DNA from: a virus
Lineage: Duplodnaviria; Heunggongvirae; Uroviricota; Caudoviricetes
DNA length: 5,127 nt
Direction: 5' to 3' (one strand)
IMG/VR virus record: IMGVR_UViG_2648501318_000002
Location: 1 to 5,127 of that record
A program made the translations under genes and the position numbers. Each line of letters starts with the position of its first letter. The first letter of the stretch is position 1. Positions 4,016-4,581 of the stretch are shown piece after piece. The notes under the pieces were generated by a model. The model searched no databases and was not told the DNA's origin. It was given only the letters and a program-made list of their open reading frames with translations.

Positions 4016-4470
4016 TACGCCTCCTGCTTATCGCGCAGCTGCTGGTATTCACAGCTCTGCGGAATTGTCAGGTGGCAGCCGATATTCATCGCCCAGGCTT
4101 CGACTTTGCACAGGAAGATGTACATCTCGCCGGTTTCCAGCTCTGACGTATGGCGGAGGGATTGGACGGTGGTGACCTCGCCGGACACGACATCTACACG
4201 GTCTTTGCTTTCGTAGCCGAGATAGGTGTGCTTCATCGCGTCTTTGACCCACTCAGGCGTAGCGAAGGTCTTGCCGCGGGCGATGAGATATTCGCTGATC
4301 TCCGTGTACCACATGTGGCTGAGCGCGTTCTGCGACAGGCTGCGCTTCTCGCGCCACGGCTTAACCTGCAGGCGTAAGCATTGCCCGGCATCCAGCAATG
4401 GCTGAATCTGCTGGCCGATGGCCGCGAAGTTACCGCGATGGAGTTTGATGCCGTCTACTGGCAGAGTCAT
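4015..4470 (-). CDS. ybcN: NinB-family protein (YbcN-like, DNA-binding/recombination-associated)
   Basis: 151-aa ORF containing the NinB-like motif KRSLSQNALSHMWY. GGGAGG Shine-Dalgarno lies 4 nt upstream. The ATG overlaps the stop of the upstream 31-aa ORF (ATGA). Confidence 0.85.
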   Translation of the reverse strand: MTLPVDGIKLHRGNFAAIGQQIQPLLDAGQCLRLQVKPWREKRSLSQNALSHMWYTEISEYLIARGKTFATPEWVKDAMKHTYLGYESKDRVDVVSGEVTTVQSLRHTSELETGEMYIFLCKVEAWAMNIGCHLTIPQSCEYQQLRDKQEA

Positions 4471-4562
4471 ACGGCCTCCCTAACGGAAACCGCAGAATGC
4501 AGAAAATCGCAGGTGCATTTCTGCATCTGTGACAAGGTGATGAGTTCAGATTGTGGTCGCAT
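4467..4562 (-). CDS. Small leader ORF (31 aa), translationally coupled to ybcN; possibly the ylcH equivalent
   Basis: Minus-strand ATG at 4562 preceded by AAGGGGA. Product MRPQSELITLSQMQKCTCDFLHSAVSVREAV; the stop TGA overlaps the ybcN ATG. An in-frame stop lies immediately upstream of the ATG. Below the track's size cutoff. Confidence 0.45.
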   Translation of the reverse strand: MRPQSELITLSQMQKCTCDFLHSAVSVREAV

Positions 4563-4581
4563 TTAAGTCCCCTTAAATGCG
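4558..4581 (-). other. Perfect 10-bp stem-loop covering the RBS and start codon of the 31-aa ORF
   Basis: CGCATTTAAG / CTTAAATGCG arms with a 4-nt loop. In the minus-strand RNA the ATG is inside the 3' arm and the GGGGA of the Shine-Dalgarno is in the loop. No adjacent U-tract, so not a canonical terminator. Confidence 0.4.

Follow-up and report, generated by a model that had tools for sequence, protein, structure and literature searches.

A hairpin-sequestered leader reading frame ahead of ybcN/ninB in lambdoid (pro)phages: a candidate translational gate of the nin-region operon

The leader reading frames of the plasmids R1 (tap-repA) and ColIb-P9 (repY-repZ) end at, or overlap, the start of the main gene, whose ribosome-binding site is buried in a hairpin and opened by translation of the leader. 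In both, the initiation region of the leader is the controlled step, the sequence of the peptide is unimportant, and an antisense RNA blocks leader translation. We analysed a similar layout in a 5,127-nucleotide (nt) stretch of Caudoviricetes DNA (IMG/VR record IMGVR_UViG_2648501318_000002, positions 1 to 5,127; this whole stretch is called the window below). Here a 31-codon open reading frame (ORF) on the minus strand starts inside a hairpin, HP2, and ends over the start of ybcN, a gene of the NinB/Orf family. A leader ORF ending over the main start and a main ribosome-binding site held in a hairpin, predicted here, are common to this locus and the plasmid systems. The plasmids use an antisense RNA block, whereas here an intrinsic hairpin of −13 kcal/mol lies on the leader start and no pseudoknot activator was identified; a consensus scan of the window gave no promoter-like site on the opposite strand within 4467-4620.

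Other described systems resemble the locus in part. In mok-hok, translation of an overlapping frame is required for the downstream frame, and a stable fold of the initiation region keeps the mRNA inert. The overlapping frame and the stably folded initiation region recur here, but there is no toxin and no known 5′-3′ fold-back or processing, and the downstream gene is a recombination mediator. The trp and his leaders, pyrBI and ermC also place a short leader ORF within alternative hairpins upstream of an operon. They differ in that their leader's own start is not sequestered, as it is here, and the present locus has no run of regulatory codons in its leader peptide, no match to an Rfam leader and no demonstrated terminator/antiterminator pair. 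RNA thermometers (ROSE, fourU, lambda cIII) rely on mismatched helices weak enough to open at 30-42 °C; HP2 shares with them a paired Shine-Dalgarno sequence and AUG, but is a perfect helix with a predicted melting temperature of ~85 °C.

The closest relatives of the element are ylcH of Escherichia coli K-12 and orf33 of phage 82. They have in common with the window their position before ybcN (orf151 in phage 82), a promoter-like site, an upstream hairpin (HP1), HP2, a conserved core within the ORF and the overlap with the next gene. The window carries HP2 allele A and a 31-aa ORF, while K-12 and phage 82 carry allele B and a 33-aa ORF. Comparison of these sequences leads us to favour, as probable though well short of certain, the reading that the ORF and HP2 form the ylcH/orf33-type leader of the nin-region operon in many lambdoid (pro)phages, with a role in gating and coupling translation. 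Annotations of the ORF and the repeats, with no function assigned, already existed for K-12, phage 82 and phi80. This analysis adds the structural conservation, a hairpin over the ybcN start (HP4), the lack of constraint on the peptide and the link to a published RNA 3′ end.

The leader ORF and the hairpin over its start

4467..4562, minus strand: leader ORF, 31 codons plus stop, ATG start at 4562-4560, peptide MRPQSELITLSQMQKCTCDFLHSAVSVREAV.
4558..4581, minus strand: HP2, a 10-bp stem with a GGGA (GNRA-type) loop at 4571-4568, sequestering the ATG at 4562-4560.

The original prediction, made from the letters of the window, described a 31-aa ORF with an ATGA overlap to ybcN. This is what we find: the frame runs from 4562 to 4467 on the minus strand, and its TGA (4469-4467) overlaps the ybcN ATG (4470-4468). 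The prediction missed that the ORF already has a name, and that this hairpin belongs to a larger conserved leader with four structures in all. Alignment and translations identify the ORF as a homologue of phage 82 orf33 and of K-12 ylcH (b4588, 33 aa), which is annotated as ‘hypothetical protein’ and entered in UniProt (YLCH_ECOLI) as ‘uncharacterized protein YlcH’. A 32-aa ORF is annotated at the equivalent site in O157:H7. The PGAP annotation of the source genome omits the leader ORF, while the K-12 and O157 copies are annotated; both match the window at 75.7-82% of nucleotides, over a region that opens with the promoter-like site and extends into ybcN. Record X92588 for phage 82 lists putative −35/−10 hexamers, which are those of the same promoter-like site, a repeat described as a ‘possible regulator-binding site’, which is HP1, a ribosome-binding site, orf33 and orf151 (the ybcN homologue). 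In the phi80 record the start-codon hairpin, HP2, is marked as repeat ‘IR4’. No function is assigned to the ORF or the repeats in the K-12, phage 82 or phi80 records.

Database searches added little. The leader peptide matched no Pfam, NCBIfam or PHROG family, the exact window peptide was not in the protein collection searched, and a literature search found no paper with the sequences of the element. Rfam 15 covariance models gave no match at E ≤ 1 over 4400-4700; their sole match in the window is a chance-level Trp_leader at 870-992.

The element itself is widespread. With the leader plus the first 91 nt of ybcN as query, megablast found a match in 2778 of 5426 complete E. coli genomes. Matches in the phage collection came from Escherichia, Enterobacter and Klebsiella phages, including HK639, HK225, phi80 and phage 82, and searching viral contigs and species-representative genomes for exact words extended the list to Citrobacter, Lelliottia, Trabulsiella and others. 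Homology between prophages typically starts at the promoter-like site, as seen by megablast and alignment. Extraction with nhmmer gave 162-164 distinct copies. The scans were anchored on words from the ORF core and from the HP1 3′ arm plus linker, and the conservation of each anchor is to be judged on the set collected with the other.

HP2 is formed by the inverted repeat CGCATTTAAG/CTTAAATGCG, whose arms (4581-4572 and 4567-4558) are complementary at 10 of 10 positions across a 4-nt spacer; the perfect 10-bp stem with the ATG in its 3′ arm had been correctly recognised. The Shine-Dalgarno sequence AAGGGGA (4574-4568) had been placed in the loop, which is right for GGGA and wrong for AAG, the final 3 nt of the 5′ arm, which are paired. 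Folding of the hairpin region, proposed as a check, returned a stable structure of −13.3 kcal/mol, compared with −3.8 ± 2.0 kcal/mol for dinucleotide shuffles (z −4.77; 0 of 200 shuffles as stable). For the whole leader, the predicted probability of an unpaired AUG rises from 0.0003 at 25 °C through 0.001 at 37 °C to 0.0016 at 42 °C, and the isolated hairpin is predicted to stay folded up to ~85 °C. The minimum free energy (MFE) structure of the whole leader includes HP1, HP2 (with an extended stem) and HP4.

Conservation of the hairpin in related prophages was examined in a covariance-model alignment of 99 distinct (pro)phage sequences, which was used for HP1, HP2 and a helix in the ORF core, H3. 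All 10 HP2 pairs showed changes on both sides, and 99.7% of cells were standard pairs. When the partners within the HP1, HP2 and H3 helices were slid by 1-3 columns, pairing fell to 25-36%, and none of 500 column shuffles reached the observed values. MAFFT with RNAalifold misaligned the HP2 alleles and missed HP2. At least eight alleles of HP2 were distinguished, all with an ATG or GTG 4-7 nt into the 3′ arm:

Allele A (window): 5′ arm CGCAUUUAAG, loop GGGA, 3′ arm CUUAAAUGCG.
Allele B (K-12): 5′ arm GCGCUAAACG, loop GGGA, 3′ arm CGUUUAUGCGC, one bulge.
Allele B′: loop GGGA, one pair shorter than B, lost on both sides.
Allele C: 5′ arm GCGCUUUGAG, loop GGGA, 3′ arm CUCAAAGUGC, GUG start.
Allele D: 5′ arm CGCAUUUGAUG, loop GGGA, 3′ arm CAUUAAAUGCG.
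Allele E: 5′ arm CGCAUAUGAUU, loop GGGA, 3′ arm AAUUAUAUGCG.
Allele F: 5′ arm GCAUCUGAUU, loop GGGA, 3′ arm AAUUAGAUGC.
Allele G: 5′ arm GCACUUCGAUG, loop GGGA, 3′ arm CAUUGAAGUGC.

The loop is GGGA in all alleles except for GGAA in two sequences, and both forms fit GNRA. Predicted folding energies range from −12.9 to −17.4 kcal/mol for alleles A and C-G, with −14.4 kcal/mol for B (the full B′ stem was not among the folds). Several alleles contain G·U pairs, which argues that the pairing is specific to the mRNA strand. Together, the compensatory changes and the G·U pairs support the conclusion that HP2 is under selection as an RNA structure on that strand.

Reading frame, conserved core and predicted coupling to ybcN

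4507..4532, minus strand: core TCACAGATGCAGAAATGCACCTGC, 24 nt at 4532-4509, nearly invariant including synonymous sites.
4467..4496, minus strand: HP4, in which the 3′ end of the ORF (4496-4485) pairs with the ybcN Shine-Dalgarno sequence GGGAGG (4480-4475), the spacer and the start codon.
4015..4470, minus strand: ybcN, divergent NinB/Orf-family gene (PF05772 match, E 3.6e-05), first of the ybcN-ninE-ybcO-rusA-ylcG-quuD series.

The original prediction spoke of a regulatory leader peptide, to be abandoned if the ORF were not conserved in related prophages. Most of the 162 distinct extracts contain a short ORF whose first in-frame stop is the TGA of an RTGA motif that also holds the next start. 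The exceptions are two loci with a CAG→TAG change in the core and a few loci with a different downstream region. The segments between the start and the core are unrelated between alleles (for example MRPQSELLTLSQ, MRTYNPNSLLPSQ, VQTTIRTPFNQSQ, MRNTKSTSHHLSQ, MRKHKEHRTTSLQ, MRTHNEQITLSQ and VLNMKTKALTSSQ), and they measure 33 or 36 nt, all in frame and free of stops. After the core, the peptides fall into three main tail families, ...SAVSVKEAV, ...SALPLGGGV and ...PAFDLCGGEA; the window ORF ends in ...SAVSVREAV. Counted by codon position, variant sites number 25/26/29 and 25/31/29, an even spread; the synonymous fraction is 0.28-0.31, where random change would give 0.21-0.24. The core variants listed are mostly non-synonymous, including QKC→LNG/LSG/LIG.

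The amino-acid sequence of the ORF is thus, as far as sequence variation can tell, almost unconstrained. The unrelated segments, the even spread over codon positions and the RTGA motif suggest that what is conserved is translation through the frame and termination on the next start, rather than the peptide. A leader reading frame therefore fits better than a functional protein, because the ORF is kept while its peptide is nearly free to vary.

The core can form either H3 (UCACAGAUGCA-GAAA-UGCACCUGCGA) or a mutually exclusive helix, H3′, with 4505-4497. H3 is the RNAalifold consensus, at −9.1 kcal/mol, and H3′ is the MFE structure of the single sequence, at −13.4 kcal/mol (z −2.8). Just three pairs of H3 covary, in one to three sequences each; the variants favouring it, small in number, are CAG→CCG with CUG→CGG, and GCAGAAAUGC→GCUUAACGGC, which keeps G-C, C-G and U·G. 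H3 was considered as an attenuator and set aside, given only three covarying pairs and no Term-seq 3′ end inside ylcH. N-terminal and tail alleles are also reassorted at the core. The two viral contigs with the CAG→TAG copy of the core (L108 and L029) have a peptide cut to 14 aa and another downstream region without stop/start overlap, and the covariance-model search found a second copy of the element in each. These copies may be natural ‘leader-null’ variants useful for comparison.

Where the ORF ends, over its last 10-12 codons, the predicted structure HP4 pairs UCUGCGGUUUCC (4496-4485) with GGAGGCCGUA-GA (4479-4467) around a GUUAG loop and would bury both the Shine-Dalgarno sequence and the AUG of ybcN (−18.5 kcal/mol, z −3.2). 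Hairpins of this type were predicted in all three tail families, with inner-stem sequence and Shine-Dalgarno register varying by type: tail type 2 forms UCUGCGUUACCUC/GAGGUGGCGUAUGA (−16.5 kcal/mol, z −3.9), and the K-12 type forms GCGUUUGACCUC/GAGGUGAAGCGU. In K-12 strain JM83 (L002:3146-3198) the Shine-Dalgarno region of ybcN reads GGAGGGG, the usual form being GGAGGTG. The gene after the leader nearly always belongs to PF05772 (NinB/Orf), in subfamilies without BLASTP similarity to each other (E 0.32). The idea of a module not tied to one downstream gene family was accordingly dropped, although these subfamilies are extremely divergent.

The locus combines a conserved stop/start overlap, a downstream start predicted to be sequestered by leader sequence and a nearly unconstrained peptide. 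As modelled, the overlap and HP4 make up the classical arrangement for translational coupling by a leader ORF. The proposal that ybcN is coupled to the small ORF is thereby backed by the predicted HP4 over the ybcN Shine-Dalgarno sequence and start, with the reservation that HP4 is weak in K-12.

Upstream signals and genomic setting

4588..4614, minus strand: HP1, a 9-bp stem (arms 4614-4606 and 4596-4588) with the 9-nt loop CCUGAACAA at 4605-4597, followed by CUUCUG at 4587-4582.
4619..4647, minus strand: sigma-70 promoter-like site found by consensus scan, TTGATT at 4647-4642, 17-nt spacer, CATAAT at 4624-4619.

HP1 has a 10-bp stem in most relatives. The window copy folds at −12.5 kcal/mol (z −3.5), and the range is −12.5 to −18.3 kcal/mol. 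Eight of 10 pairs changed on both sides and 96.2% of cells were paired, U·G being the commonest type at one pair. The loop, YYUGARCAM with a YUNR-like CUGA/UUGA, is conserved while the stem covaries; a plain terminator does not need a fixed loop. No complementary partner of the loop was found within the window.

HP1 coincides with an RNA end seen in vivo. Term-seq of K-12 MG1655 placed RNA 3′ ends at 572349 and 572350 in two of three growth-condition tables, at low read counts (Adams et al. 2021, PMC7815308). These ends map to ...CUCCGGUGACUUCUG, 5-6 nt after the HP1-homologous stem and 19 nt before the ylcH ATG (PMC7815308), indicating that HP1 marks an RNA 3′ end in K-12, generated by termination or exonuclease trimming. 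For HP1 as an intrinsic terminator the signs are mixed: its tail is only UUCUG and the consensus scan is silent, yet the K-12 ends lie 5-6 nt past the stem. Expression of the DLP12 rusA operon is reported to need an insertion-supplied promoter (PMC4118853), and an RNA 3′ end marked by HP1 fits this finding.

The promoter-like site was present in 122 of 126 distinct upstream regions, as −35/−10 hexamers in 106 and as an extended −10 (TGnTATAAT) in 16, and in 112 of 125 regions 13-14 nt separate the end of its −10 from the HP1 loop. That two promoter designs occupy the same fixed position speaks for a real promoter. Its predicted +1, ~7 nt after CATAAT, lies 3-4 nt into the 5′ arm of HP1. RNA initiated at the predicted promoter would then have a shortened HP1, and upstream read-through transcripts the full 10-bp stem; given this +1, HP1 could be a terminator only for incoming transcription. 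Over the −35 and the spacer lies the palindrome TTGATT-N6-AATCAA (4647-4630, minus strand), seen in 110 of 126 regions with its half-sites kept and its middle variable, which looks like an operator for a dimeric protein. A comparison with the immunity region of the source prophage gave one copy with one mismatch, over a cro-like start (L001:1799-1816), which is within chance.

The window is a segment of a DLP12-like lambdoid prophage and matches E. coli CV839-06 at 100%. On the minus strand the order is IS1, an AT-rich stretch, the leader, ybcN, ninE, ybcO, rusA, ylcG, quuD, a porin gene, essD and rrrD. Two further features lie upstream of the leader:

4880-5127: IS1 copy, ending at 4880, ~230 bp upstream of the leader, adjoining the 49-aa ORF.
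4735-4884, plus strand: 49-aa ORF in the AT-rich stretch, hypothetical in the source-genome annotation.

Their place is taken by ybcM in K-12 and by ybcK in O157. Downstream, the weak Trp_leader match at 870-992 (minus strand, E 0.96) owes its score to a GC hairpin and U run (AAACCCGCCGUCGAGCGGGUUUUU) in the interval that separates the porin gene from essD, probably no more than an intrinsic terminator. Over L001 10184-12017, in the source strain, an IS3-family element interrupts rrrD and the porin gene (nmpC/ompC-like) is intact. In K-12, IS5 comes after the porin gene region.

A proposed gate and coupler weighed against other readings

If the leader acts as a translational gate and coupler, HP2 would keep initiation at the leader ORF rare. 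Only a ribosome translating the leader would unzip HP4, terminate on RTGA and let ybcN/ninB initiate. The chain of overlapping genes, possibly with Rho polarity on untranslated RNA, would carry this setting through the operon to quuD, a Q-type antiterminator gene. HP1 would stop or trim most incoming transcripts, leaving the locus doubly locked unless anti-terminated phage transcription passes. The leader peptide itself would probably be irrelevant.

Several points weigh against this reading. With a probability of ~0.001 that the AUG is unpaired, the leader may hardly be translated, which is at odds with selection for an open frame unless an opener exists. The covariance-model alignment was fitted to the structure and is biased towards it; the list of alleles is independent of the alignment. 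These alleles are few (~8 events) and spread by recombination, so that sequence counts overstate the number of independent events. HP4 of K-12 is no more stable than shuffles (z −0.55), and because the registers differ between tail types and give no alignment consensus, HP4 was folded per type and has no joint covariation count. With a strong Shine-Dalgarno sequence of its own, ybcN might initiate independently when HP4 breathes. The Cappable-seq supplements hold no experimental start site for the promoter, the ribosome-profiling supplements examined have no ylcH entry, and a literature search found no experimental evidence of ylcH translation or coupling.

Among the alternatives, the ‘thermosensor-like’ element of the original prediction is the one we regard as least credible, and we reject it on energetic grounds. 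The base-paired start codon and partly paired Shine-Dalgarno sequence are as expected of an RNA thermometer exposing the ribosome-binding site at the temperature of the host or on heat shock. HP2, however, is a perfect helix of 10-12 bp in most alleles (B has one bulge), capped by an extra-stable GNRA loop, at −13 to −17 kcal/mol; its predicted melting at ~85 °C and the rise of AUG accessibility from 0.0003 to just 0.0016 between 25 and 42 °C argue against melting within the physiological range, and evolution has retained perfect pairs (99.7%) rather than the mismatches typical of thermometers. Barely more probable is that the palindrome acts as DNA, as an operator or recombination signal, with the RNA hairpin incidental. 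In its favour, the repeats are entered as DNA features in the records of phi80 and phage 82, and N-terminal and tail alleles are joined in mosaic fashion at the core. However, G·U pairs, equivalent to G·T or A·C mismatches in DNA, are found in several HP2 alleles and predominate at one HP1 pair. The arm sequences moreover differ wholly among alleles with pairing alone kept, unlike the evolution of an operator for a single protein. It is somewhat less far-fetched, though still doubtful, that YlcH is a functional small protein with a Cys-x-Cys...His core, its expression set low by HP2 and its overlap with ybcN a matter of operon packing. The core SQMQKCTC(D)FLH occurs in nearly all alleles, and the ORF carries a PGAP annotation in K-12 and O157 and the UniProt name YlcH. 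Against this, the N-terminal third is replaced as a block from allele to allele, HP4 and the Shine-Dalgarno sequence of the next gene dictate the C-terminal third, and the codon-position and synonymous-site patterns and the failure to match any protein family, both given above, do not point to a protein. The core is invariant at synonymous sites too, its listed variants mostly change the amino acid, and QKC→LNG/LSG/LIG loses a Cys while the RNA pairing stays.

Two wider readings are each unlikely, but deserve more weight than the foregoing. The leader may be primarily transcriptional, with HP1 (and perhaps H3 with a U-rich run) as attenuators, or with HP1 and HP2 as a cis-acting RNA that modifies its polymerase, the ORF and the start-codon hairpin being secondary. 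The in vivo RNA 3′ end just past HP1 in K-12, the promoter-like site directly upstream at a fixed distance and the conserved loop on a covarying HP1 stem all suit such a device. So do a terminator-like pattern that the scan flagged within the ORF and the ability of the core to form a GAAA-capped hairpin followed by U-rich sequence. It would leave unexplained the kept frame, the start codon in HP2, the stop/start overlap and HP4; in addition, the consensus scan did not call HP1, whose tail is only UUCUG, no Term-seq 3′ end is listed inside ylcH, and Rfam, with its leaders and attenuators, gave no match at E ≤ 1. At a similarly low level of likelihood, the whole 180-nt module would be an autonomous and as yet undescribed riboregulatory switch that licenses the nin-Q operon in many lambdoid phages through a trans-acting RNA or protein, independently of N-type antitermination. 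Its parts would be the palindrome-bearing promoter, HP1 with the invariant YUNR-like loop, HP2, the nucleotide-invariant core and HP4, with ylcH as the reading frame of the sensor. The trans factor might be a kissing partner of the HP1 loop, or a single-stranded-DNA-binding NinB/Orf protein acting on its own leader.

Read as a gate and coupler, the element would give ylcH, a K-12 gene without assigned function, a testable role as a hairpin-gated coupling leader, and it adds a well-covarying RNA element that has no Rfam family. It also offers a mechanistic reason for the silence of ybcN-rusA in DLP12 when no insertion drives its expression. The leader of intact phages stands ahead of the genes running up to the late-gene antiterminator Q, and from this position it could influence lytic timing and prophage leakiness, including in lambdoid phages of the Shiga-toxin type.

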